DNA from: a virus
Lineage: Duplodnaviria; Heunggongvirae; Uroviricota; Caudoviricetes
IMG/VR virus record: IMGVR_UViG_2695420602_000002
Direction: 5' to 3' (one strand)
Length of the DNA: 13,136 nt
A model generated the notes under the pieces. That model was not told where the DNA came from. It saw nothing but the letters and a program-made list of their open reading frames with translations, and searched no databases. Of this stretch, positions 1 through 13,136 are shown piece by piece; position 1 is the first letter of the stretch; each line of letters starts with the position of its first letter. Both the position numbers and the translations under genes were made by a program.

Positions 1-1260
1 ATGAAACTTACCGATCTCACGGTACGAAATGCCAAGCCTGATCAGGTCAACAATAAGATTAAGAAACTGAGCGATGGAAACGGGCTATATCTCGCTGTCT
101 ACCCCAATGGGTCGAAGTACTGGCGCTTTCGTAAAGTGATTAACAGTAAAGAAACAACTCGGGCTTTAGGCATCTACCCGGCCATGACACTGGCAGAGGC
201 CAGAAGTGCCAGAGACTCGTATTTGCTTGAGTTATCCAAAGGGATTGATCCCTTGCACACCATAAAGCCTAAAATAACCTCATTTGAGGAAGTTTCCAGA
301 GAGTGGCATACCAGAAAACGTGGATGGAGTGAACCACACGCTAAAAAAGTCCTCAAAGATTTAGAAAATCATATATTCCCTGAAATAGGCAAAAGAGCAG
401 TTAATGAAATAACAACTCAGGATTTATTAACACCCCTTAGAAAAATGGAGGATAAAGGAATACTGGAAACCGCTTCGCGTATCAAACAACGCATGAATGC
501 GATCATGCGCTATGCTGTACAAAGTGGAATAATTAAATATAACCCAGCACAAGAACTGGATGGCGCTTTAGAAACAAATAAAACAAAACACCGCCCCGCC
601 CTTCCTCTTGAACGCTTACCGGAATTATTAGATAAGATTGAAAATTACCATACTCAGTCACACGGGCGGCTATTAACTCAATTAGCTGTAAGACTTAACC
701 TCTTAATTTTTATTCGCTCCAGTGAACTTCGTTTTGCTCGCTGGAATGAAATAGACCTTGATAAATCTCAGTGGATTATTCCAGCGCAACGAGAAGAAGT
801 TAAAGATGTAAGGTTTTCATACCGTGGTGCAAAAATGAAAACGCCTCATACGGTTCCTCTTGCCACACAAGCAATAGAAACTCTAAAGGCAATAAAGGTA
901 ATTTCAGGTGATGAGATATTTGTTTTCCCCGGCGACCACTATCAATCAAAACCGATGAGTGAGAATACAATAAATAAAGCGTTGCGTAATATGGGATATG
1001 ACACGCAATCAGACGTTTGTGGACATGGTTTCCGCGCTATGGCCTGTGCAGCCCTCACGGAGTCTGGAAAGTGGTCAAGAGAAGCAGTAGAGCGTCAGAT
1101 GAGCCACAAAGAAAGAAACTCCGTCAGGGCTGCATATGTCCATCAAGCCGAACATATGGAAGAACGACGCCTGATGTTGCAATGGTGGGGAGACTATCTT
1201 GAGGCCTGCCAAACAGCTTATATTCCACCTTATAAATTTGAATGGTCTTCGAAAAAATGA
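1..1260 (+). CDS. int: P4-type tyrosine integrase (site-specific recombinase, phage integrase family), 419 aa
   Basis: Full-length ORF from the track. N-terminus (MKLTDLTVRNAKP...DGNGLYL) and C-terminal motifs (GHGFRA, HMEERRLMLQWW) match the P4/CP4-type integrase family as recalled. Position next to a tRNA-type att is typical. Confidence 0.9.
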   Translation: MKLTDLTVRNAKPDQVNNKIKKLSDGNGLYLAVYPNGSKYWRFRKVINSKETTRALGIYPAMTLAEARSARDSYLLELSKGIDPLHTIKPKITSFEEVSREWHTRKRGWSEPHAKKVLKDLENHIFPEIGKRAVNEITTQDLLTPLRKMEDKGILETASRIKQRMNAIMRYAVQSGIIKYNPAQELDGALETNKTKHRPALPLERLPELLDKIENYHTQSHGRLLTQLAVRLNLLIFIRSSELRFARWNEIDLDKSQWIIPAQREEVKDVRFSYRGAKMKTPHTVPLATQAIETLKAIKVISGDEIFVFPGDHYQSKPMSENTINKALRNMGYDTQSDVCGHGFRAMACAALTESGKWSREAVERQMSHKERNSVRAAYVHQAEHMEERRLMLQWWGDYLEACQTAYIPPYKFEWSSKK

Positions 1261-1330
1261 TTCTGTGGCGTAGTCAACTTGTGGACACGCCAAAATTTTA
1301 TGCATATAAAACAATTAGATAAAACCGCCA

Positions 1331-1350
1331 AAAGACACAATGTGTCTTTT
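1331..1350 (+). terminator. Weak hairpin downstream of int (AAAGACACA / TGTGTCTTT) followed by a T/A-rich tract
   Basis: 9-nt inverted repeat read directly from the sequence, 70 bp after the int stop. The U-tract is poor, so this is tentative. Confidence 0.25.
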
Positions 1351-1792
1351 ATTAAATAACTTATTGATTTTATTATACAAATCAACCCTTATTCCATTTT
1401 GGAATTAGTGATATTAGTTTCATTCAAAATTTAGCACTAATTTATTGACGAACATCACATTTATAAAGAAAATCTTTATGTTTCCACTTCAATCAGTAGA
1501 CACCTCACCGTTAAATAGAATGACTTTACGATCTACAATAATACACTACCAATCACTATGATATTTTCAAACCGCTTCTAACCGCTTAGAGCTGCTTATA
1601 TTGGTTTGGATTGGGTTCCGAAATTCGATTCATATGAGGACTGAAAAGTCAAATCACATCAATAAGCACCAATTTTACAAAACATCTTACCTTTGATTAT
1701 GATTTCCCTGTCCCGTAAGCCACCGTAAGATCTCATATGATCCACGTTGGGTTGCAAAAAAATGAACGAGCAATATTGTATAGGTGGCTCTT

Positions 1793-2014
1793 ATGTCATT
1801 ACCAACATCATCTAATGAATATAAAACACAGAAACTTATTAGACTTCCAAAGGTTATTGAAATAACTGGAAAGTCAAGAACACGTATTTATGAAGATATG
1901 AAAGCTAACCGCTTCCCTAAAGCAATTAAAACAGGGTCACGTTCAGTCGCCTGGGTTGAACAAGAAATTGCTGAATGGATAGAGGATAAGAAGAAGCAAC
2001 GATTTCAAAACTGA
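1793..2014 (+). CDS. alpA: AlpA-family (prophage CP4-57 regulatory protein-like) HTH transcriptional regulator / excision activator, 73 aa
   Basis: Core LIRLPKVIEITGKSRTRIYEDM...SVAWVEQEIAEWIE closely parallels E. coli AlpA (ILRLPAVIQKTGMARATIYDWL...SVGWIEAEIDEWL, recalled). ATG at 1793 preferred over the GTG at 1784 because AGGTGG lies 5 nt upstream. Confidence 0.88.
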   Translation: MSLPTSSNEYKTQKLIRLPKVIEITGKSRTRIYEDMKANRFPKAIKTGSRSVAWVEQEIAEWIEDKKKQRFQN

Positions 2015-2035
2015 CCATTTATATTTTCAGTCAAT

Positions 2036-2070
2036 AAAAAACGCCTGCGTTTTGCCGAACGAGGCGTTTT
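2036..2070 (+). terminator. Rho-independent terminator after alpA
   Basis: Stem ACGCCT(2041-2046)/AGGCGT(2062-2067) with an inner CGTT/AACG stem, flanked by an A-tract upstream and TTTT downstream. It sits 22 bp after the alpA stop. Confidence 0.6.
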
Positions 2071-2195
2071 AACTGAGTTAATATCTTAACAGGAATCCAG
2101 CAATGCTTTACTTACCGGAACAACACAATTGTATACGTTTTCTTCTGGCGCTTAAAGCGTTTGACAACAGAAGAAAAAATATTCACCGCAGCCTA

Positions 2196-2225
2196 TTGAC
2201 GTCCCACAATGTACTGTCGTATCGT
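2196..2225 (+). promoter_or_regulatory. Candidate sigma70 promoter (TTGACG-N18-TATCGT) driving the leader / small RNA
   Basis: -35 TTGACG at 2196-2201 and -10 TATCGT at 2220-2225, read from sequence. The 18-nt spacer is one longer than optimal. Confidence 0.3.
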
Positions 2226-2231
2226 TTAAGC

Positions 2232-2310
2232 GTTGCCCCTCAATGGGCAATCGGGCGTGGAAACCCGTATCAGTACAAGGCGACATCAGACGCCGATTGC
2301 GTCTTTTTTA
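2232..2310 (+). ncRNA. Candidate small structured RNA / attenuator leader ending in an intrinsic terminator (possible analogue of the P4 immunity CI RNA region)
   Basis: Hairpin TTGCCC-ctcaat-GGGCAA (2233-2250), hairpin CGGG/CCCG (2252-2267), then a terminator hairpin. Lies between alpA and the early operon. No convincing protein in this stretch. Confidence 0.3.
2288..2310 (+). terminator. Rho-independent terminator (AGACGC-cgatt-GCGTCT followed by TTTTTT)
   Basis: Perfect 6-bp GC-rich stem, 5-nt loop and T6 tract read directly. It lies inside the 199-aa track ORF 2103..2702, arguing against that ORF being one gene. Confidence 0.55.
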
Positions 2311-2504
2311 TTGTCGTTAAATCAGTGCCACCATATTCAGCGGAGCAGATCCGCGCAGTATCAATGGTGGCTCTGGCAGGGCAGCTTTCGGGCTGGCCGG
2401 TCTCCTTGTACGCCGGTATTTCCACCCCTGTCAGTGTCACCACCAATCATGAGCGTGGAAACTCCGGTGGTGACTCCTTAATTAAGTACAAGGAGATCAT
2501 CATT

Positions 2505-2702
2505 ATGATGACAACCCCTGCCCCATTGCATCCCCAATTTGTTTGGCTTTTTCTCGCTGTGCGCCGTTCTGACGTGTCCGCACGTCCACACCGTGAAGAA
2601 GTCACCGCCTCAACCTATCAGGCCGCACGCCGCGTTATAGCGCGTGAATTTATCGCCTCTTTTGCCGGTCGTCTGCCGGTTCGCGAGGTGGCCCATGTTT
2701 AA
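2505..2702 (+). CDS. Hypothetical small protein, 65 aa (early operon gene 1)
   Basis: ATG at 2505 preceded by AAGGAG with a 9-nt spacer. C-terminus ...REVAHV is shared with the next gene. Stop overlaps the next start in ATGTTTAA. Confidence 0.5.
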   Translation: MMTTPAPLHPQFVWLFLAVRRSDVSARPHREEVTASTYQAARRVIAREFIASFAGRLPVREVAHV

Positions 2703-2949
2703 CCCCCTTGATAACCAAAAAGCCGCAACACTTAACCCGTTCCATGATAACCACTACGCGCCGCCAGCTTTCATCAAGCCAGGTACAAAAGTAACGGTTG
2801 AAATAGATTCGCGTGAAATGGAGATCGCCATTTTTGCCGCTTACGATTACGGCCTTGACGCTTTGAACGATAAAGGGCGGGACGTCCTGAACCGCTTAAT
2901 TGCTGAATTAAAAGATCGGATAACAGCTCGTGAGGTGGCTCATGTTTAA
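2695..2949 (+). CDS. Hypothetical small protein, 84 aa (early operon gene 2)
   Basis: Internal ATG at 2695 preceded by GAGGTGG. Overlaps the previous stop, suggesting translational coupling. C-terminus ...AREVAHV. Confidence 0.6.
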   Translation: MFNPLDNQKAATLNPFHDNHYAPPAFIKPGTKVTVEIDSREMEIAIFAAYDYGLDALNDKGRDVLNRLIAELKDRITAREVAHV

Positions 2950-3133
2950 ACTGCTTATCACCCTGATTAATCACGAAGCTGGCGACCGGCGCGAACTGGT
3001 TCACATTGGCCGCTATAAAACCCGCGAAGCTGCATGGAAAGACGCGCAGAAAATGGCGTATATCCATAAGAATGCCATCGGCACCGTAACGCATGAATGT
3101 ATTGTGAAAATTGCGGAGGCCGGAAATGTATAA
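2942..3133 (+). CDS. Hypothetical small protein, 63 aa (early operon gene 3; paralog of gene 4)
   Basis: ATG at 2942 preceded by GAGGTGG. Begins MFKLLIT..., similar to the next gene (MYKLFIT...). Stop overlaps the next start. Confidence 0.55.
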   Translation: MFKLLITLINHEAGDRRELVHIGRYKTREAAWKDAQKMAYIHKNAIGTVTHECIVKIAEAGNV

Positions 3134-3320
3134 ACTGTTCATTACCTGCCGTAACGTTATTACTGGCGAAATACAAAATTATCAAAGCACGCAGGAATAT
3201 AAATCATCCGTTAAGGCGGTGAAAGCAGCCTGTAAAATGGCCGATGTTATTACCTGTAACGGGAAATATGCCGATGATAATGAATACACCGTAACAGTCG
3301 GGAAGGTGAAACATGGCTAA
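3126..3320 (+). CDS. Hypothetical small protein, 64 aa (early operon gene 4; paralog of gene 3)
   Basis: ATG at 3126 overlaps the previous stop in ATGTATAA. Shares the M-[FY]-K-L-x-I-T start and a KMA motif with gene 3. Confidence 0.55.
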   Translation: MYKLFITCRNVITGEIQNYQSTQEYKSSVKAVKAACKMADVITCNGKYADDNEYTVTVGKVKHG

Positions 3321-3546
3321 TATCTTTCGCGGTAAAGTAACAAGGAATAAATCTTATCAGGTTTCTGGTTATGCGGTGACGCGTAAAGGTTATACGCGCA
3401 GTGCACAGGTGACGGTTGAGGCGCTTAATCGCGATGATGCAATAATCCGGGCTACGGCCCAGCTACGTTGGGAAGGATTAACGCATTTTAAAGCGCTAAA
3501 GGTGCTGGAAATAATCACGCCATTATTTATTAATCAGAGCCGATAA
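3313..3546 (+). CDS. Hypothetical small protein, 77 aa (early operon gene 5)
   Basis: ATG at 3313 overlaps the previous stop in ATGGCTAA. GGAAGGTG lies upstream. Confidence 0.55.
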   Translation: MANIFRGKVTRNKSYQVSGYAVTRKGYTRSAQVTVEALNRDDAIIRATAQLRWEGLTHFKALKVLEIITPLFINQSR

Positions 3547-3623
3547 CACGTATTTAATCTGAGTCAGTTTAAACCGAATTAATTTTCGGGGGATGCCTTC
3601 ATCCGTCGAAAGAGGACTATGCC

Positions 3624-3887
3624 ATGACAACAAGTAATCATATTCAGAGTGTTAATCCGTCTCACCTCAGTATTGAGAATTATCACAAACTGAATCGCGC
3701 GAGGAATGTCGCATTTCAGATGCATTTACATATTCGCCAGTGTGAAGCTAACGCGATGCCACTCTTATGGATACCGGATATTTTCAGTTATATCAGTGAA
3801 GATATTTCATCAGTACTACAGGAAGTTAAACGCCTGGGGATTTGTGACAAATATCTGGGACATGCTGTACAAGAAGACAAAGAGTGA
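3624..3887 (+). CDS. Hypothetical protein, 87 aa, immediately upstream of the primase (position analogous to P4 epsilon/orf151; function unknown)
   Basis: ATG at 3624 with AAGAGGA 7 nt upstream. The alternative-frame ORF 3706..3903 lacks an RBS. Confidence 0.55.
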   Translation: MTTSNHIQSVNPSHLSIENYHKLNRARNVAFQMHLHIRQCEANAMPLLWIPDIFSYISEDISSVLQEVKRLGICDKYLGHAVQEDKE

Positions 3888-3926
3888 AATAAAAGCGCCG
3901 TGATGAGCGGCGCTTAAGGATTTTAT

Positions 3927-6596
3927 ATGAACAGAAAAGATCTACGCCCCGAAATCATAAAACGACTGGTGCATGATTACCAGTTTAAAGAGCAGAACGG
4001 CTATCTGCGCTCAGGTATTTGCCCTGAATGTAACAAGAAAGAACTCTTTACCAGCATGGAAAATCCTTGGGTGCTGCGCTGTGGCCGGGAAAATAATTGC
4101 GGCGCTGATCTGTCGGTAAAATCGCTCTATCCTGAATTATTTAACTCATGGTCAGATCGCTATGAGAGCACGCCTGAGCAGCCTTTTGCCGCTGCGGAAG
4201 CCTATCTGAGAGAAGCCAGAGGGCTGGATACTACCTGCTTAAAGGGCTGCTATACGCAGGAAAGCTACCATAAGGGCGGCATGGGAAGCGCAACGGTTCG
4301 CTTTGCCCTGTCTGATGGTATCTGGTGGGAGCGGATTATCGACAAGCCAGAACGCTTTGATCGAAAGGCTAACTTCCACGGTAAGTACGCCGGTCACTGG
4401 TGGGTTCCGCCAGCGCTGGATCTGGCTAAAGTCAGTTGTATCTGGCTAACTGAGGGGATTTTTGACGCCATTAGCCTTTATCAGAACGGCACCCCTGCCG
4501 TTTCCATTATGACTGCCGGAAACTACCCGGAAGCCGCGCTTAAAGCGCTTGCTGAACAATTCCAGGGCAAAGAAAAGCCGTTTCTTGTCTGGGCGCTGGA
4601 CAATGGGAAAGCAGGGGAAACAGCCATACGTCGCCATGTGGCGCGGAGCCGTGAACAAGGCTGGAAAGCCGTTGCCGCACTTCCTTCACAGGGGAGCAAT
4701 AAAGCTGACTGGAACGATCTCCACCTTACCGGAAAGCTGACCAGACGACACCAGAAAGAGTACCGCTATTACGGCGATCTGTTGCTGGCGGAAAGCGCCC
4801 GAGATAAGGCGCTTCGGATGTTTGAACATAATGAACGCCCTGAGTTTCACTTCGAATACGGGAACTGCGTGTACTGGTTTAAGCTGGACATTGAGCGCCA
4901 TATGAAGGCCGTTGAGCGTATCCTTAACGATAAAAAAGTTAATGATGAACGTGAAGCCAGAAGTATTGCATTGAAAGAGTCTGGAGCAATTAAGGAAATA
5001 GCCAATTGTCACCCCGCACCGCTGTATTTTATGCGTTCAGAAGTTACAGACGAGTCCTGGTATTATTTTCGCATCGCCTTTCCAGGCAATACACCCGCAG
5101 TGAAAGACTCCTTTACCGCGGGGCAGATCTCTTCTGCGTCTGAGTTTAAAAAGCGTCTCCTCCATGTGGCAAAAGGTGCGCTCTATACCGGAACCAGCCA
5201 GCAGCTCGATGGTCTGATTAAAAAGGATCTGCCCCGGATCAAAGAGGTCAGGACGCAGGACTTTATTGGGTATAACAGGGACTGGCGGGCATGGGTATTC
5301 AATAAGCTGGCGATACATAACGGGAAGGTCTACTCCTTGAACAGCGAAGATTACTTTGAGATTGGTGGGATGAATATCAAGACACTGAGCCGATCCCCGT
5401 TAATCAATATCAATTCTGATGATAATTCGCTTTCGTCAGGCTGGGCCGATGATATCTGGACGGCTTTTGGTGAAAATGGCTATGTCGCGCTGGCATTCTG
5501 GCTGGGAACATTCTTCGTTGAACAGATACGCGAACAGCAGGCCAGCTTTCCCTTTCTGGAGATTATCGGTGAACCGGGAACAGGTAAATCCACGCTGATT
5601 GATTTTCTCTGGCGGCTCTGTGGCAGGGACAGCTATGAGGGAATTGACCCTTCAAAGGGTTCTGTTGCGGGCATTTATCGTAACTTCGCCCAGGTCTCAA
5701 ACCTTCCCGTCGTGCTGCTTGAAGGCGATCGCGCCCAAGACACGAAGAAGCTGCGCGGCTTTGACTTCGATGAGCTAAAACCGCTCTACAACGGGCGCGG
5801 ATTACGGGCGATTGGTGTTAAGACCAACAACAATGAAACCAGAGAGCCGCCATTCAGGGGCAGCATTGTCATCGCGCAGAATGCCACCGTTAACGCCTCA
5901 CCTGCGATACTGGAACGTATTATCCATGTGTTTACGGATAAACGCCGTCAGTCATCGCTGACCAGGGCGGCGGCTGAACGCCTTGAGCGTCTGCCGGTCG
6001 ATCAGGTATCTGGTTTTATGATCCGGGCGGTATGCAGGGAAAGCGCAGTATTGTCGATTATTCAGGAGGTGTATGAGGCCGAAAAAATCAGGCTGGAACA
6101 ACACTCTGAAATTCGTCATATCCGAATTGCCAAAAATCATGCCCAGATGATTGCATGTGTAAGGGCGCTGACCTGTGTTCTGGATATTCCCGCAGAACGC
6201 CTCGATCGCACCTGTGAACAGCTTACTGTGATGGCGGTGGAGCGGGTTAAATCGCTGGAAGCGGATATCCCTGTGGTTCGTGAGTTCTGGGATGCCTTTG
6301 ATTATCTGAATAGCCTGGAGCGTTTCGGCGTCAACCATTTTGGGAAAGAGAATCGCGACGAGATCGCCATTAACTTCCCTCACCTGATGCGTATAGCTGC
6401 TATGCAGCGTGTAAATATTCCCCCGGCGAAAGAAATTCAGGATTACCTGAAAAACGGGCGTATGCGGCCGTGTACGGGCCAGAAGACGGTAAGAAGTGAG
6501 GTTTCCAGACTGGCAAATCAGGGGCGTGGAGAGGCTGGCCCGAAAGAGCCTGAGCAGGTGAAATGCTGGATTTTTAAAGTGCCGGCCGCTCAGTAG
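3927..6596 (+). CDS. Bifunctional DNA primase-helicase (P4 alpha-like): N-terminal Zn-ribbon, TOPRIM-like region, C-terminal P-loop NTPase; 889 aa
   Basis: Cys cluster CPEC...RCGRENNCG near the N-terminus. TOPRIM-like IWLTEGIFDAISL and VWALDNGKAGE. Walker A GEPGTGKS and Walker B-like VVLLEGD. RBS AAGGA 8 nt upstream. Confidence 0.82.
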   Translation: MNRKDLRPEIIKRLVHDYQFKEQNGYLRSGICPECNKKELFTSMENPWVLRCGRENNCGADLSVKSLYPELFNSWSDRYESTPEQPFAAAEAYLREARGLDTTCLKGCYTQESYHKGGMGSATVRFALSDGIWWERIIDKPERFDRKANFHGKYAGHWWVPPALDLAKVSCIWLTEGIFDAISLYQNGTPAVSIMTAGNYPEAALKALAEQFQGKEKPFLVWALDNGKAGETAIRRHVARSREQGWKAVAALPSQGSNKADWNDLHLTGKLTRRHQKEYRYYGDLLLAESARDKALRMFEHNERPEFHFEYGNCVYWFKLDIERHMKAVERILNDKKVNDEREARSIALKESGAIKEIANCHPAPLYFMRSEVTDESWYYFRIAFPGNTPAVKDSFTAGQISSASEFKKRLLHVAKGALYTGTSQQLDGLIKKDLPRIKEVRTQDFIGYNRDWRAWVFNKLAIHNGKVYSLNSEDYFEIGGMNIKTLSRSPLININSDDNSLSSGWADDIWTAFGENGYVALAFWLGTFFVEQIREQQASFPFLEIIGEPGTGKSTLIDFLWRLCGRDSYEGIDPSKGSVAGIYRNFAQVSNLPVVLLEGDRAQDTKKLRGFDFDELKPLYNGRGLRAIGVKTNNNETREPPFRGSIVIAQNATVNASPAILERIIHVFTDKRRQSSLTRAAAERLERLPVDQVSGFMIRAVCRESAVLSIIQEVYEAEKIRLEQHSEIRHIRIAKNHAQMIACVRALTCVLDIPAERLDRTCEQLTVMAVERVKSLEADIPVVREFWDAFDYLNSLERFGVNHFGKENRDEIAINFPHLMRIAAMQRVNIPPAKEIQDYLKNGRMRPCTGQKTVRSEVSRLANQGRGEAGPKEPEQVKCWIFKVPAAQ

Positions 6597-6611
6597 CAGA
6601 GGAACAATAGT

Positions 6612-7592
6612 ATGACCATTAAAAAACGGGCTGACGGGCGTTATGAAGTCGATATTTATGCCAGAGGGCGCAGCGGTAAGCGCTTTCGCAGGATTTTTGA
6701 CAGAAAGCAGGAGGCAGCGCTCTTTGAACGGTATGTTATGGCGAATGCCGATAAAAAAGAGTGGTTGGGCGCCAGCACCGATCGGCGTACTCTCAGCGAG
6801 CTGCTAAACATCTGGTGGCTGCTGTATGGCCGGACGCTGGAGAACGGAAACGCCGAAAAACGACACCTAGATAAAACGATCAGAGCCCTGGGCAACCCGG
6901 CAGTTAACCGGCTGACTAAACGAATCATCGCGCAGCATCGCAGCGAGCGGCTGGATTCAGGGATCAGCACGGCCACCGTCAACCGTGATATATATCGCCT
7001 TTCGGGTATGTTCAGCGCCCTGATAAAACTGGATGAATTCAAGGCTGATAACCCCTGTAAAGGGCTGGAGCCATTGAGGGAGAAACCAGCAGCAATGACC
7101 TACCTTACTAAATCGGAAATCAGTCGATTATTGAATACCCTTACAGGTGACGATCGCCGTGTTGCTCTTTTGTGCCTCAGCACCGGCGCACGCTGGGGAG
7201 AAGGCAGCACACTGCGGGGAGAGCAGATTAACCACGGACGCGTAACTTTTCTTAAAACCAAAAACGGGAAGAGGCGCACGATCCCAATATCGGATGAACT
7301 GGAAAAAGAGATCAAAACCCGCGATTGCGGGCCGCTGTTCAGCGTTGACTATGAAGCCTTTTGCGGGCGGCTTAGGGAGGTTAAGCCGGACCTGCCGCGC
7401 GGGCAGGCTACGCATGTGCTTCGCCATACGTTTGCAAGCTGGTTCATGATGAACGGGGGCAATATTATCGCCTTACAACAAATTCTTGGTCACGCCAGTA
7501 TCCAGCAGACGATGGTTTATGCGCATGTTGCGCCTGACTATCTGCAACACGCCGTTTCACTCAATCCCCTTTCTGGCGGAATCAGCCTCTGA
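6612..7592 (+). CDS. Second tyrosine recombinase / integrase-family protein with an arm-type N-terminal domain, 326 aa
   Basis: C-terminal catalytic signature HVLRHTFAS ... LGHASIQQTMVYAHV (R, H-x-x-R, H, Y). GAGGAA RBS upstream. Starts 16 bp after the primase stop on the same strand. Confidence 0.78.
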   Translation: MTIKKRADGRYEVDIYARGRSGKRFRRIFDRKQEAALFERYVMANADKKEWLGASTDRRTLSELLNIWWLLYGRTLENGNAEKRHLDKTIRALGNPAVNRLTKRIIAQHRSERLDSGISTATVNRDIYRLSGMFSALIKLDEFKADNPCKGLEPLREKPAAMTYLTKSEISRLLNTLTGDDRRVALLCLSTGARWGEGSTLRGEQINHGRVTFLKTKNGKRRTIPISDELEKEIKTRDCGPLFSVDYEAFCGRLREVKPDLPRGQATHVLRHTFASWFMMNGGNIIALQQILGHASIQQTMVYAHVAPDYLQHAVSLNPLSGGISL

Positions 7593-7595
7593 ATG

Positions 7596-7620
7596 ACCGG
7601 CTGACGGGCCGGTTTACCCC
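7596..7620 (+). terminator. Possible terminator hairpin after the recombinase (ACCGGC-tgacgg-GCCGGT, then TT..CCCCTTT)
   Basis: 6-bp GC stem starting 4 bp after the stop codon. The U-tract is interrupted, so support is modest. Confidence 0.3.
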
Positions 7621-7888
7621 TTTCCCTCGTAGCGTAGATATATTCCCTTCGTTTTTAGCTGTTCTGCATTACGCCCTCATCGCCCGGATCACCGTCGTTT
7701 CTGACCGTTCTGCAGCACGGTTAAAAATGACTGTACTCGATGTATGGCCAGCACTGCCGTAAGTGGCAGTGTTTGCCGGAGTGGAGCCATTGCCGGACAT
7801 TTGGCGAAATGACAAAACATTTAACAGAAAAGAAGCCTTTTTTAAAAAAAAGCAGATTTTCCAGAATTTGAGGGGGGGGATCGGAAAC

Positions 7889-8150
7889 GGGTTACAAAAG
7901 TTACAAAGTAAAGATATAAATATATTATATTGATTTATATGTAATTTTCACCAACTTGGAAAAGTTACAACCGGGTTACGATCGGGTTACTCTGTAACCT
8001 TATCTAAAGTTACAACTTAGATATTTAACTGATTGATTTTATTGGGTGTAACTTTAATGGAACCTTTTGTAACCTCACAAAGGTTACAAATTTAATTAAT
8101 ATAAATCATTGAGTTAAGCATATTATTTCACCCCCGTAACCGTTGTAACC
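7889..8150. repeat. Iteron array in both orientations (core GGTTACAA / TTGTAACC) around an AT-rich stretch; putative origin of replication
   Basis: At least nine copies of the GTTAC(A) core. They include tandem GTTACAAA x2 (7891-7907), palindrome GGTTAC-tct-GTAACC (7985-7999), and 11-bp inverted copies GGTTACAAAAG (7890-7900) and CTTTTGTAACC (8064-8074). AT-rich segment at 7905-7950 and a G8 tract at 7872-7879. Confidence 0.5.
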
Positions 8151-8580
8151 GACTTCCGTACCTCCCCTCAGTTTTTCAGTAAAACAGCTCTTTTTCTGTT
8201 AACCCTTTTTTCACACTTCACTTTCAAATCAGCGTGCACCGAGGGCAATAAATCAACATTGTGCAACACGAAAACAGCGTGCATAACTGGCCCGGGCGCA
8301 GCCGGAGTTTGGCTCTTTTTAAGGTGAAAATGATCGCTGCAAAATCACCGCACAAATTTGCACGCTAATGCACAATTTTTTTGATGGTACTTTTGCCACT
8401 CCAGCCCAGACGGGGCACGGCTTTGGCCGGACTGCACATTTGCACAAAAAAGCGGGCTTTCTGCGTGCGGGCGAGGCGGGGGAACAAGCGCGCGCTGAGA
8501 GGTGAGACAGGATGGCATATCCTGATTATTCTCCGGCTTGATGTGATGCGTTTTATAGATGGGTAATGCAGGAAGGTGGA

Positions 8581-8614
8581 TAATGAAAACACCTCTCAGC
8601 GTGGCTCTGAGAGG
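8581..8614 (-). terminator. Intrinsic terminator-like hairpin on the minus strand (CCUCUCAG-loop-CUGAGAGG followed by UGUUUUC)
   Basis: 8-bp stem (plus strand 8592-8599 / 8607-8614) with a 7-nt loop. The U-rich tract exists only on the minus-strand transcript. About 170 bp downstream of the minus-strand RHH ORF. Confidence 0.4.
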
Positions 8615-8784
8615 CTTATATTGCATCTGGTAGTTGATCACATCTTTTTGTGTTAATGCATCAATTTTTTTGAAGGGAACGGCACCCATCAGGCTAGATC
8701 GTGAAGGATTCAAGGGCAGATCTGTACCATATGAGCGTATGCGGCTGGATGTGTAATACACCCGCTCGTACGGGCTGGGCGGGG

Positions 8785-8994
8785 TTATATTCGATGTTTC
8801 CGGCAGGAATCGATCTCAGGAACGGCTATTCGCCCGATCCCTTTAGCCAGCAGACCCGCACCGGCCAGTTCGATCAGGCAACGACAATAGCTCGCACCAC
8901 TTCGCTTGCTCATCGCCACTATGTACTGATCCAGTTCATTGGGGATCCTCAGTGATTTCAGCACCGACCTGTTATTTCTGGGTAATGTGGGCAT
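8785..8994 (-). CDS. Arc/MetJ-like ribbon-helix-helix DNA-binding protein candidate, 69 aa, divergent from the late-like operon
   Basis: Strong SD (AAGGAGGAA) 4 nt before the ATG. Predicted beta-strand/helix pattern RSVLKSLRIPNELDQYIVAMSKRSGASYCRCLIELAG parallels P22 Arc (FNLRWPREVLDLVRKVAEENGRSVNSEIYQRV, recalled). Codon usage is plausible. Confidence 0.45.
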   Translation of the reverse strand: MPTLPRNNRSVLKSLRIPNELDQYIVAMSKRSGASYCRCLIELAGAGLLAKGIGRIAVPEIDSCRKHRI

Positions 8995-9058
8995 AGTTCC
9001 TCCTTTGGCCTGTCTGCATTATCTGCGCAAACCGTCCGGGACGAATGATGCTTATAGG

Positions 9059-9076
9059 TGTAGTACACCCCTGACA
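9059..9076 (+). promoter_or_regulatory. TGT-N12-ACA dyad (P2/P4 late-promoter activator-site pattern) upstream of the 245-aa gene
   Basis: TGTagtacacccctgACA read directly, ~75-90 bp upstream of the ATG at 9150. Ogr/Delta-family activators bind such dyads around -55 (established). One chance match in ~150 bp is not negligible. Confidence 0.3.
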
Positions 9077-9149
9077 ACCTTAACGGTGCGACTGGATTTA
9101 TTTTTCCTGCAATCATTTTCCCATCGCAATAATCACAAGGTGCAGGACG

Positions 9150-9887
9150 ATGACACAAAACAACATGCAGGCATTACTCGTGAGTTACCAGCAGCAGAAA
9201 GAGCTATTTGACCGTGCCTATAAGTCTCTTTCAGACGAAGAGAAGGTGCTTGCCAACCTGAGCGAGACAAAGCGAAAAATAGAAGTGGAGTCAAACGCGG
9301 GCCATAGTGCCGGTGACTGGGGGCTTGCGTTGCTCAGGAACGGAGGCGTTGAAAGTGCGGAAACAGATGGTGCGGCACTGTCCGCAGCGCAGGTGATGGT
9401 AAAGCTTCAAAAAATCCAGGAGTTGATTGAATCCCAGAGCCTGACGGTGCTTGATCTACGGATTCAAACCGCAAGCCAGGCACGCCAGACGAAAGAGGCT
9501 TATTTTAAACTTTCGTCAGTGATTGCGGATTCTTTTCTCCAGTCTCTTAAAGACGACCTCAGAGCGCTGGTTGGTGAGCGATTGTCTGTCGTCATTGGGC
9601 TTTATTCTCTGGCAGGATTAAACACCAGTGATGCAGAAAGAATATTATCAGATGAATTTATGAAGTTACTTCGCGTTGACTCCAGAACGGTTGTACGTGA
9701 ATTATTGAGTGATGCTGACAGTAGTCTTTTCAGCGATCCTGTACTGGCATTTTTCCCCGGTGCATTGTCTGGCAGTATTAACCATGCGTTAAATAACAGT
9801 CCTTCGCCAATTCAGGAATCTAAAGCACGCTCTGATATGGATTATAAGAAGAGACTGGCGGCGGGTATTGAGCCATTCAGAAAATAG
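9150..9887 (+). CDS. Hypothetical coiled-coil-rich protein, 245 aa; possibly a Sid/Psu-like or scaffold-like capsid-associated protein (positional inference only)
   Basis: Good ORF with a Q/E/K/L-rich helical composition. Immediately upstream of the capsid-like gene and Ogr. Length similar to P4 Sid (244 aa, recalled), but no sequence match could be verified. Confidence 0.65.
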   Translation: MTQNNMQALLVSYQQQKELFDRAYKSLSDEEKVLANLSETKRKIEVESNAGHSAGDWGLALLRNGGVESAETDGAALSAAQVMVKLQKIQELIESQSLTVLDLRIQTASQARQTKEAYFKLSSVIADSFLQSLKDDLRALVGERLSVVIGLYSLAGLNTSDAERILSDEFMKLLRVDSRTVVRELLSDADSSLFSDPVLAFFPGALSGSINHALNNSPSPIQESKARSDMDYKKRLAAGIEPFRK

Positions 9888-9924
9888 TCTTGATTAAATT
9901 CATACCATCAATGGAGTTTTTTAT

Positions 9925-10962
9925 ATGAAAAACAGCACCAGAGAAAAATATGATGCATGGTGCTTATTGCAGGCATCACAAAATAAGCTGAACAGTTCAA
10001 AGCTGGATGGGATTTCCTTTTCACTTACACCATCTGCATCGCAAACTATTGTTGATAAGATGCAGGAAAGCGCAGATTTACTTAAACAGATAAATATTCT
10101 GGAAGTGGACGAGCAGGAAGAAGAGTCGATCGGGCTTACATCTGTACCGCTGTCCAGTACGAACAACTCAACGACAGAGGCACGCCAGCCCGTACAAGGT
10201 TGTACAGCAGAGACTGACCGATACCGTTGTGAGCAGGTGAATACTGATACCTATGTTTCTTATGAGAAACTGGATCAGTGGGCGGGCCTTGATAATTTCT
10301 TCGGGCATATGGAGAGCCAGATTTATCGCCGTCAGGCACTGGATGTAATACTGACTGGCATTTATGGCACTCACCATGCGGCTAAATCAGATATTACTGC
10401 TAACCCGTTGCTTCAGGATGTTAATACCGGCTGGTTAGAAAAGTGGCGGCGAAATGCCTCAGCCCGCGTGGTTAATGGTGTATCGGTCAGTCGCCGCAAT
10501 AACGCCAATATTATCGAGTCCAGCGGGGATTACGGTACTATTGACTCTCTGACGATGGAGGCATATCAGGAATTATTAGATCCGTGGCACACCGGGGATT
10601 CAGATCTTGTTGTTATTTGTAATCTCTCATTGATTACAGGAAAGTATTATCCCTTTGTTAATAATCTTGGAGTGACACCAAATAAAGAGTTGCTCGCTTT
10701 AGCATTACAAAATGAGAACCGTCAGATCGGAGGGCTTCCCGTTTGCCCAATTCCGTTCTTTCCTCAAAATGCGATGCTGGTTACTTCGCTTGATAATCTG
10801 TCTTTGTACTGGCAAACAGGAACACACCGCCGCAAAATCTCGGAAGAACCGGAATTTAACCGCGTCTCAACCTATGATTCGTGGAATAACGCCTATGTGG
10901 TCGAAGACTACGGCAAGGGATGCCTGATTGAAGGGATTATCTGGGGTAACGATCAGCGTTAA
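9925..10962 (+). CDS. P2 gpN-family major capsid protein homolog, 345 aa
   Basis: Segments match gpN as recalled from memory: SQTIVDKMQESADLLKQINI (gpN TQTLMNTMQESSDFLTRINI), YRCEQVNTDTYVSYEKLDQWA (gpN YECDQINFDFYIRYKTLDLWA), LLQDVNTGWLEKWR, GDSDLVVI, HRRKISEEPEFNRV...YVVEDYGKGCLIE. The function needs a search to confirm. Confidence 0.6.
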   Translation: MKNSTREKYDAWCLLQASQNKLNSSKLDGISFSLTPSASQTIVDKMQESADLLKQINILEVDEQEEESIGLTSVPLSSTNNSTTEARQPVQGCTAETDRYRCEQVNTDTYVSYEKLDQWAGLDNFFGHMESQIYRRQALDVILTGIYGTHHAAKSDITANPLLQDVNTGWLEKWRRNASARVVNGVSVSRRNNANIIESSGDYGTIDSLTMEAYQELLDPWHTGDSDLVVICNLSLITGKYYPFVNNLGVTPNKELLALALQNENRQIGGLPVCPIPFFPQNAMLVTSLDNLSLYWQTGTHRRKISEEPEFNRVSTYDSWNNAYVVEDYGKGCLIEGIIWGNDQR

Positions 10963-11030
10963 CCCGTCTCCGGTCTGGTTCAGTATGGTATTATTATTGC
11001 GATACTAACCAGACCAGAGGAGAAGCGCAT

Positions 11031-11264
11031 ATGGCTATGCGTTGCCCTCAATGCCATGCAACGGCGAAGACAAGAACCAGCGTTGAACTCAGCGACCTGG
11101 TAAGAAAAAGCTATCATCAGTGCCAGAACCTTAAGTGTGGCCTGACGTTTATCTCTATGACAGAGATTTACTGCACGCTTAACCGTCCCGATTTGCCATC
11201 ACATACCCTTGAAGCCCTTCCACCGGACAAGTTCCCGATCAGCCACCAGGAAAAAACGCTGTAA
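11031..11264 (+). CDS. ogr: Ogr/Delta-family zinc-finger late-gene transcriptional activator, 77 aa
   Basis: C5-x2-C8-x22-C31-x4-C36 spacing with the SYHQCQNLKCGLTF motif (P2 Ogr RYHQCQNVNCSATF, recalled). RBS GAGGAGAAG upstream. Confidence 0.85.
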   Translation: MAMRCPQCHATAKTRTSVELSDLVRKSYHQCQNLKCGLTFISMTEIYCTLNRPDLPSHTLEALPPDKFPISHQEKTL

Positions 11265-11271
11265 ATACCCA

Positions 11272-11300
11272 TGCAGCCCCTATCTATAGGGGTTGCAGTG
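11272..11300 (+). terminator. Hairpin after ogr (GCAGCCCCTAT / ATAGGGGTTGC, one G-U) with a weak U tail
   Basis: 11-12 bp stem starting 8 bp after the ogr stop. The tail GTGCTTTAACA has only a short U-run. Confidence 0.35.
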
Positions 11301-11352
11301 CTTTAACAGCGGTGATAGATATCGCTAATAACAGGCCAGTAGTACGCTATCA

Positions 11353-11374
11353 AACGGGTACAATAACGGGTACA
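11353..11374. repeat. Tandem direct repeat AACGGGTACA x2 (candidate integrase arm-type sites in the attR arm)
   Basis: Two perfect 10-bp copies 12 bp apart, about 60-80 bp from the tRNA-like core. An IHF-like site TATCAATAAGTTA lies at 11403-11415. Confidence 0.3.
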
Positions 11375-11428
11375 TCTAACAGCCAATAAAACTATAATCA
11401 ATAAATATCAATAAGTTAAATTAAAAGA

Positions 11429-11448
11429 CGATTCCTGCAGGGACACCA
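11429..11448 (+). other. attR core: 3'-terminal fragment of a tRNA gene (T-loop/T-stem/acceptor/CCA), most like tRNA-Arg argW
   Basis: CGATTCCTGCAGGGACACCA ends in ACCA with T-stem and acceptor 3' halves but no 5' half, so it is a repeat copy and not a gene. The recalled argW 3' end is GGTTCGATTCCTGCAGGGGACACCA. Confidence 0.55.
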
Positions 11449-11838
11449 GATACCCTTCAAACGAAATCTACCTTCACCCCGTAAAAGATAGGTTTGGCAG
11501 CACACTTGCCTTATATCTACTCATTTTTACTGCAACAGGTTGAAATCTCAGCACTGTCAGAAAGCGCTGATGACTAAACAGCCCTGGGCCGGGCGATGTA
11601 ACCATCACACAGAATCCTGATAGCGAAATATGGCGTGACTCGATACTTCACTCCGCAATGCATTCCTTGATGAATTCGCAGGACCGTGATACACGGGACA
11701 GGTCGCTGAATGACGACAATGTCCTGGAAATCAGCGAACCGCGCATCTGAAGTACATTTGAGCGACTGTACCAGAACATGAATGAGGCGTTTAGATTAGG
11801 TGATTATTAGCAGGGCTAAGCACTTTAGTATTATTATT

Positions 11839-11877
11839 TTCCGGTTGAGGGATAGGGAGATATCGACAACAACCGGA
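11839..11877 (-). terminator. 11-bp perfect inverted repeat (TTTTCCGGTTG ... CAACCGGAAAA) just downstream of cscB; candidate terminator or protein-binding site
   Basis: Perfect IR with a 17-nt spacer, 12 bp beyond the cscB stop, followed on the minus strand by an AU-rich tail. Confidence 0.3.
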
Positions 11878-11888
11878 AAAGTTTACGT

Positions 11889-13136
11889 CTATATTGCTGA
11901 AGGTACAGGCGTTTCCATAACTATTTGCTCGCGTTTTTTACTCAGGAAGAAAATGCCAAATAGCAACATCAGGCAGACAATACCCGAAATTGCGAAGAAA
12001 ACTGTCTGGTAGCCTGCGTGGTCAAAGAGTATCCCAGTCGGCGTTGAAAGCAGCACAATCCCAAGCGAACTGGCAATTTGAAAACCAATCAGAAAGATCG
12101 TCGACGACAGGCGCTTATCAAAATTTGCCACGCTGTATTTGAAGACGGATATGACACAAAGTGGAACCTCAATGGCATGTAACAGCTTCACTAATGAAAT
12201 AATCCAGGGGTTAACGAACAGCGCGCAGGAAAGGATACGCAACGCCATAATCACAACACCGATAAGTAATGCATTTTTTGGCCCTACCCGATTCACAAAG
12301 AAAGGAATAATCGCCATGCATAGCGCTTCGAGTACCACCTGGAATGAGTTGAGATAACCATACAGGCGCGTTCCTACATCGTGTGATTCGAATAAACCTG
12401 CATAAAAGACAGGAAAAAGTTGTTGATCAAAAATGTTATAGAAAGACCACGTCCCCACAATAAATATGACGAAAACCCAGAAGTTTCGATCCTTGAAAAC
12501 TGCGATAAAATCCTCTTTTTTTACCCCTCCCGCATCCGCCGCTACGCACTGGTGATCCTTATCTTTAAAACACATGTTGATCATCATAAATACAGCGCCA
12601 AATAGCGAGACCAACCAGAAGTTGATATGGGGACTGATACTAAAAAATATGCCGGCAAAGAACGCGCCAATAGCATAGCCAAAAGATCCCCAGGCGCGCG
12701 CTGTTCCATATTCGAAATGAAAATTTCGCGCCATTTTTTCGGTGAAACTGTCAAGCAAACCGCATCCCGCCAGATACCCCAGGCCAAAAAAGAGCGCCCC
12801 CAGAATTAGACCTACAGAAAAATTGCTTTGCAGTAACGGTTCATAAACGTAAATCATAAACGGTCCGGTCAAGACCAGGATGAAACTCATACACCAGATG
12901 AGCGGATTCTTCAGACCGAGTTTATCCTGAACGATGCCGTAGAACATCATAAATAGAATGCTGGTAAACTGGTTGACCGAATAAAGTGTACCTAATTCCG
13001 TCCCTGTCAACCCTAGATGTCCTTTCAGCCAAATAGCGTATAACGACCACCACAGCGACCAGGAAATAAAAAAGAGAAATGAGTAACTGGATGCAAAACG
13101 ATAGTACGCATTTCTGAATGGAATATTCAGTGCCAT
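11889..13136 (-). CDS. cscB: Sucrose:H+ symporter (LacY-family MFS oligosaccharide permease), 415 aa
   Basis: Full ORF whose start is the last base of the window. The sequence (MALNIPFRNAYYRFASSYSFLFF...) matches E. coli CscB as recalled and shows LacY-family motifs and multiple hydrophobic spans. Confidence 0.85.
   Translation of the reverse strand: MALNIPFRNAYYRFASSYSFLFFISWSLWWSLYAIWLKGHLGLTGTELGTLYSVNQFTSILFMMFYGIVQDKLGLKNPLIWCMSFILVLTGPFMIYVYEPLLQSNFSVGLILGALFFGLGYLAGCGLLDSFTEKMARNFHFEYGTARAWGSFGYAIGAFFAGIFFSISPHINFWLVSLFGAVFMMINMCFKDKDHQCVAADAGGVKKEDFIAVFKDRNFWVFVIFIVGTWSFYNIFDQQLFPVFYAGLFESHDVGTRLYGYLNSFQVVLEALCMAIIPFFVNRVGPKNALLIGVVIMALRILSCALFVNPWIISLVKLLHAIEVPLCVISVFKYSVANFDKRLSSTIFLIGFQIASSLGIVLLSTPTGILFDHAGYQTVFFAISGIVCLMLLFGIFFLSKKREQIVMETPVPSAI

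Follow-up and report, generated by a model that had tools for sequence, protein, structure and literature searches.

A candidate bidirectional late promoter region with a shared Ogr/Delta-type site in a P4-like satellite

Genes and features around the divergent gap

The stretch of DNA analysed here, which we call the window, is 13,136 nucleotides long and contains, at 8995-9149, a 155-bp gap between two divergent genes. Within this gap lies TGTAGTACACCCCTGACA (9059-9076, centre 9067.5), a TGT-N12-ACA dyad that is proposed to be the site of an Ogr/Delta-type activator. An earlier note on this DNA had placed such a dyad here, in front of an operon made up of a 245-aa gene, a capsid gene and ogr; the match at 9059-9076 is exact, and the genes follow in that order from the ATG at 9150.

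The first gene of this rightward operon (9150-9887, plus strand) encodes a 245-aa protein with a Sid/Psu fold. It shares 27% identity with P4 Sid by BLASTP (E 0.004), the profile of its family aligns with P4 Sid in hhalign at a probability of 75% (E 2.6e-5), and the two best PDB folds for its AF2 model (pLDDT 87) are those of P4 Sid (7jw1_E, TM 0.56-0.58) and P4 Psu (3rx6). On the strength of these alignments and the model, the protein is a distant Sid relative. We also considered the gene as a homologue of the P2 GpO scaffold acquired together with PO, and comparison showed no relation. The second gene (9925-10962, plus strand) encodes a P2-family major capsid protein (Pfam PF05125, E 6e-99), a homologue of P2 GpN with 40% identity over the full length, and the third is ogr (11031-11264, plus strand), which encodes a 77-aa Ogr/Delta zinc-finger activator (Pfam PF04606, E 1e-15). 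This protein retains all four zinc-binding cysteines as CX2CX22CX4C and, in an alignment including P4 Delta, has RTS...YHQCQN in common with P2 Ogr; the element encodes, in other words, an Ogr of its own.

Capsid and ogr genes are separated by a 68-nt spacer (10963-11030, plus strand) with a very stable hairpin (-38.8 kcal/mol, z -4.9) that has no U tract and is 98.5% conserved in relatives. In its outer stem, UCUCC is paired to the ribosome-binding site of ogr, and the AUG is covered by a second hairpin, in the region reaching to 11045; the structure may control ogr translation or RNA processing. No intrinsic terminator was found between capsid and ogr, and a terminator-like hairpin ends the operon after ogr (11272-11297, plus strand), being replaced in L003 and L004 by a hairpin of different sequence in the same place, with compensating differences. 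Co-transcription of capsid and ogr is therefore plausible, and the expression of ogr from such a long transcript may be limited by the hairpin in the spacer.

Leftwards from the gap, and thus divergent from the Sid-like operon, lies a family-conserved 69-aa gene (8785-8994, minus strand). Its product gives sub-threshold Pfam matches to RHH_1, RHH_5, CopG, RelB and HicB, a PDB profile match to NikA (E 0.021), and a single-sequence AF2 model of two helices at low confidence (pLDDT 65); with these features it looks ribbon-helix-helix-like (RHH-like). The small divergent proteins of the family are homologous, and their alignment shows KSVLRxLRIPHELD...SYSxC in common.

The surrounding element

Upstream of these genes, the window encodes a 419-aa integrase (1-1260), an Ash/Icd-like ORF (2103-2702), an epsilon-like 'Derepression' protein (3624-3887) and an alpha-like primase (3927-6596). 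The Ash/Icd-like ORF encloses two RNAs detected with Rfam, isrK (2232-2309, 57 bits) and a C4 antisense RNA of the P4 CI type (2360-2447, 79 bits), such that 2232-2447 looks like a P4-type CI immunity RNA region. Closer to the gap, GGCGAGGCGGGG (8470-8481) reproduces the opening 12 bases of the 19-nt P2/P4 cohesive end, a partial match that sits in 15 nt in exact agreement with the cos region (8467-8481). Judged by this complement of integrase, alpha-type primase, epsilon/Ash, CI-type RNA, Sid, Ogr/Delta and P2-type cos, the element belongs to the P4-like satellites of P2-type phages; a psu gene was not recognised in it.

Directly after the primase gene lies a second tyrosine recombinase of 326 aa, with Int_N and Phage_integrase domains (6612-7592), which coexists with the 419-aa integrase at the left end. 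It occupies the same place in L004, L006, L008 and L017, and is found in rearranged contexts in L016 and L018. The 1.2 kb that follow (7593-8784) contain no convincing ORF and several terminator-like hairpins, for example at 8592-8614 and 8761-8783.

The dyad and its conservation

Late transcription of the P2 type depends on Ogr/Delta activators and on the alpha subunit of RNA polymerase (it is rpoA109-sensitive), and the dyad found here is also present in the late promoters of phages 186, PSP3 and phiR73. TGT-N12-ACA is quoted as the consensus for the P2 promoters PP, PO, PV and PF, and similar sequences are reported for phage Smp131, at four of its putative late promoters (PMC3931495). In the window, the arms of the dyad extend to GGTGT-N12-ACAAC (9057-9078), the arms of the family being GTTGT and ACAAC. 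A CRP site, which has the form TGT-N10-ACA, was rejected on spacing.

The bare pattern is not enriched, with two matches in the window vs 2.63 expected from shuffles, and by an arithmetic estimate the chance of a bare match landing in the 155-bp gap is about 0.03. PWM scans, trained on P2/P4 sites with or without those of the family, fail to distinguish the site from shuffled sequence; matrices built from known and family sites give it the top rank in the window, at a score that shuffles often equal. Pattern and PWM scans alone are non-significant because the motif has low information content; it is context, rather than the bare pattern, that lifts the dyad above chance.

Part of this context comes from the family to which the operon belongs. 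In an exhaustive HMMER search, relatives of the 245-aa protein were limited to 13 representative clusters, with identities of 21-34% except for the close cluster; a single-sequence search of genome contigs with the Sid-like protein gave no match, and a search with a five-sequence RHH alignment gave three loci and no new lineage. Nearly all family loci share one arrangement, in which a small divergent gene, a gap of 155-200 bp and a Sid-like gene are usually followed by a P2-family capsid gene, with an Ogr gene nearby. Of 11 independent lineages with less than 35% protein identity between them, eight have an exact dyad in the interval 70-125 bp before the Sid-like ATG, namely the window group, L008, L010, L012, L013, L016, L018 and P4 (binomial P = 2.6e-15, at a background of 1.4e-4 per position). 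One-mismatch dyads are present in L006 (together with L020 and L021) and in L017; L015, with no recognisable dyad, is the exception.

At closer range, the dyad is invariant in L003, L004 and L019, and the gap is 95-97% identical in these relatives vs 87-89% for the Sid-like coding sequence. Across four close relatives, all variable positions of the gap fall outside 9057-9080 and outside the two -10-like hexamers described below, an avoidance that, over some ten variable sites, is consistent with constraint and alone not significant.

Promoter geometry in both directions

The spacing of about -55 expected of this class of promoter was derived from the activator sites and start sites annotated in the P2 record. 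There, PO, PP and PV have the dyad centre at -55.5 and PF has it at about -57, and PP and PO have a single common site with starts 111 bp apart. The sites of P2 itself are inexact, reading TGT-N12-CCA at PO/PP and PF and TGT-N11-ACA at PV.

In the window, a rightward -10-like hexamer, AATCAT (9111-9116, plus strand), preceded by TG at 9108-9109, and a leftward one, GATAAT (9018-9023, minus strand, reading from 9023 to 9018), lie at 34-35 bp from the ends of the dyad. This would put the predicted rightward start near A9123, with the dyad centre at about -55.5, and the predicted leftward start near 9011, with the centre at about -56.5, leaving 112 bp between the two predicted starts on either side of a single dyad. 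The predicted 27-nt rightward leader retains the Shine-Dalgarno sequence AAGGTG, and the predicted 17-nt leftward leader contains AGGAGG ahead of the ATG at 8994. A sigma-70 consensus scan of 8995-9149 found no promoter, and by direct reading the best -35 candidates in the gap have at most 3/6 matches; the core promoter is weak, with no usable -35 and an imperfect -10.

The same phasing is repeated across the family. When 13 promoters, including P2 PO, PP and PF with their annotated starts, are aligned on the dyad, A occupies -11 in 12 of them and T occupies -7 in nine. Rightward hexamers with A2 and T6 cluster 34-35 bp beyond the dyad in all eight family lineages, other offsets mostly scoring 0-2. 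The leftward A2/T6 peak is equally sharp and its hexamers are better (GATAAT, GACAAT, TATCAT, AAAAAT), the offset being 34 in six of the eight lineages (A2, T6 and at least 4/6 matches), 35 in the window and 33 in L018.

Could the dyad, then, serve the leftward promoter of the 69-aa gene only, with the Sid-like/capsid operon being transcribed from some other promoter or by read-through? Such an arrangement would fit with leftward -10s that are much nearer consensus and just as sharply phased, whilst the rightward hexamers are weak, and a better hexamer, AATAAT, is available at 9128-9133. We nevertheless consider it unlikely. The rightward hexamers hold their offset of 34-35 bp in 8/8 lineages, and the geometry relative to the ATG matches that of P4 Psid, which has no leftward partner. 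Moreover, AATAAT is out of phase and is not kept in phase across the family, occurring in only two of the eight lineages, and a start downstream of it would shorten the leader to about 10 nt and lose the Shine-Dalgarno AAGGTG.

A promoter of the Ogr/Delta-dependent late type in the rightward direction, as the earlier note had suggested, is thus supported at the level of sequence by the phased and weak -10, the lack of a sigma-70 promoter, the Ogr gene and the conserved site. What that suggestion overlooked is the candidate leftward promoter, with its equally phased and better -10.

Comparison with P4 Psid and P2 PP/PO

The closest parallel is Psid, the promoter of the P4 sid-delta-psu operon, which likewise has an exact TGT-N12-ACA before a Sid-family gene. 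The distance between dyad and operon start, previously described as appropriate, matches that in P4: 82.5 bp separate the dyad centre from the ATG at 9150, vs 81.5 bp at Psid. At the same offset as AATCAT in the window, Psid has the weak -10 CACAAT. Both operons encode an Ogr-family activator, making a helper-responsive and self-activating logic possible.

There are also clear differences. Psid has a second dyad 38 bp downstream, at about -18, whereas no counterpart is present here. P4 Delta is a fused double Ogr encoded second in its operon, whereas the window has a single 77-aa Ogr, encoded third and behind a hairpin; the P4 operon ends in psu, whereas that of the window has a GpN-type capsid gene in its middle; and no divergent gene lies near Psid, unlike the 69-aa gene here. 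The P4 promoter PLL carries the same dyad, at 9133-9150 of the P4 record. In front of the left operon of the window, no PLL-like dyad with good flanks was found in 1261-1800, and elsewhere in the non-coding DNA neither a PLL-like dyad nor a second Delta-type site was found.

A second exact dyad does occur in L010, where TGTACAACACTCGCCACA (4949-4966) lies 43.5 bp before the Sid-like ATG. Its distance from the ATG is the same as that of the second Psid dyad, and it is 61 bp from the first dyad vs 38 bp in P4.

For the bidirectional arrangement, the precedent is P2 PP/PO, at which one activator site serves two divergent promoters, as is proposed in the window, with starts 111 and 112 bp apart, respectively. 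The rightward operons of P2 PO and of the window both include a GpN-family capsid gene. However, the PP/PO site is imperfect (TGT-N12-CCA) and that of the window is exact; P2 has terminase and portal genes leftward and the scaffold gene rightward, whereas the window has a small RHH-like regulator leftward and, unlike P2, no GpO homologue. To our knowledge, no overlapping palindrome is known at the PP/PO site of P2.

A palindrome overlapping the proposed activator site

The left half-site of the dyad is overlapped by a 13-bp palindrome, GGTGTAgTACACC (GGTGTA-g-TACACC), at about 9057-9069. A second copy, GTGTAaTACACCC (8751-8763), lies immediately beyond the 69-aa gene at its 3' end, so that the two copies of GTGTAnTACACCC in the window bracket the RHH-like gene. 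A copy placed past the 3' end of the small gene is also present in L012 (1982) and L017 (4600). Against an expectation of 0.63, the core GTANTAC was counted 12 times (P = 5e-12) in the gaps between genes of the window, L012, L013, L015 and L017, its copies lying across or next to the dyad, the spacer and the start region. Different repeats are found elsewhere in the family, such as ACTGTTATACA in L016 and L006. Where GTAWTAC palindromes are present, in five lineages, the small protein has S, T or C immediately ahead of LRIP; four of the five other lineages have A or G there, which may reflect covariation between protein and operator. We take GGTGTAgTACACC to be a probable operator of the small RHH-like protein.

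Given that the left half-site is part of another repeated motif in the window and in L012, some of the conservation described above may reflect that motif. Taken to its limit, this leads to a reading in which GGTGTAgTACACC is only an operator of the RHH-like protein and the downstream ACA is incidental. The strong enrichment of GTANTAC palindromes in the gaps of five lineages, the two copies of GTGTAnTACACCC in the window and the same overlap in L012 all speak for such a reading, which we regard as slightly less likely still than a dyad serving the leftward gene alone. Indeed, L008, L010, L013, L016 and L018 have an exact dyad with GTTGT/ACAAC arms and no overlapping palindrome, and a 13-bp palindrome leaves both the right arm ACAAC and the phased -10s unexplained. 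In addition, the functions of operator and activator site are compatible.

Discussion

As a sequence feature, the dyad is confirmed. That it arose by chance and has no function, as its two occurrences against 2.63 expected and the shuffles that equal the PWM top scores would allow, is very improbable in light of its positional conservation (P = 2.6e-15), its fixed phase to the -10s on both sides and its invariance in close relatives.

In our assessment, the gap at 8995-9149 is probably a late promoter region of this P4-like satellite that depends on an activator and works in both directions, organised around a shared Ogr/Delta-type site. We infer from sequence features that Ogr, supplied either by a P2-like helper or by the element's own gene (11031-11264), would bind the dyad at 9059-9076 and recruit RNA polymerase to both promoters, each having its start beyond a -10-like hexamer and lacking a usable -35. 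Rightward transcription would cover the Sid-like and GpN-like capsid genes and probably ogr, and leftward transcription the 69-aa RHH-like gene. Activation, the two start sites and co-transcription of ogr all belong to this inferred scheme, as does responsiveness to a helper. The RHH-like protein would bind the palindromes and, in the window, sitting on GGTGTAgTACACC, would probably compete with Ogr or damp both promoters.

If ogr is indeed co-transcribed with capsid, self-amplification of Ogr becomes a plausible candidate for feedback. Most relatives carry ogr at a place outside their Sid-like operon, and positive feedback is therefore not a feature of the family as a whole; it would be specific to a subgroup, as in P4.

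Could the gap be more than a promoter region? We tentatively put forward, as a possibility that we hold with some doubt, that it acts as the control centre of an undescribed, capsid-carrying branch of P4-like satellites: one Ogr site would work both ways, and the product of the RHH-like gene would bind palindromes overlapping both the Ogr site and the promoters, with activator and repressor thereby competing on the same 24 bp. If true, the capsid and Sid proteins of the satellite could be produced in a timed pulse, with the capsid-ogr hairpin adding control over ogr translation.

The promoter type itself is textbook P2/P4 biology, and no concept is changed by finding it here. What the analysis offers is a proposed regulatory map for a rare satellite family, consisting of two predicted starts, one activator site and one overlapping operator. 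If this map is right, the late switch of P2 and P4 has been kept to base-pair precision across satellites that share less than 35% protein identity, and the gap is a compact helper-sensing promoter that could be useful for finding satellites and for engineering P4-type transducing particles.

The novelty lies in the host element, a member of a rare branch of P4-like satellites with a GpN-type capsid gene of its own, whereas the mechanism is already known. P4 has no capsid gene, unlike the present satellite with its full-length P2 GpN-type gene, and no description of P4-like satellites with such a gene was found in the satellite literature searched. In the window this gene comes directly after the Sid/Psu-fold gene, and the pairing is seen again in most of the distant members of the family (L006, L013/14, L015, L016, L017 and L018).

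A search of a phage collection with the region returned nothing beyond a weak capsid match. Among 5426 complete E. coli genomes, the region was found once, in KCJ3K291, where a chromosomal island beside tRNA-Arg is 99.98% identical to positions 1-11448 of the window. Identity stops at 11448, and the window continues (11449-13136) with a gene on the minus strand for a 415-aa permease, which we take to resemble the CscB sucrose permease; KCJ3K291 has intS in its place. The same satellite therefore occurs in two different right-hand contexts. The RHH gene (97%), the dyad and the promoter gap are also shared with L019, that is, Scandinavium sp. UTDF21-P1B (NZ_JBFLVD010000017.1), and the element therefore moves between enterobacterial genera.
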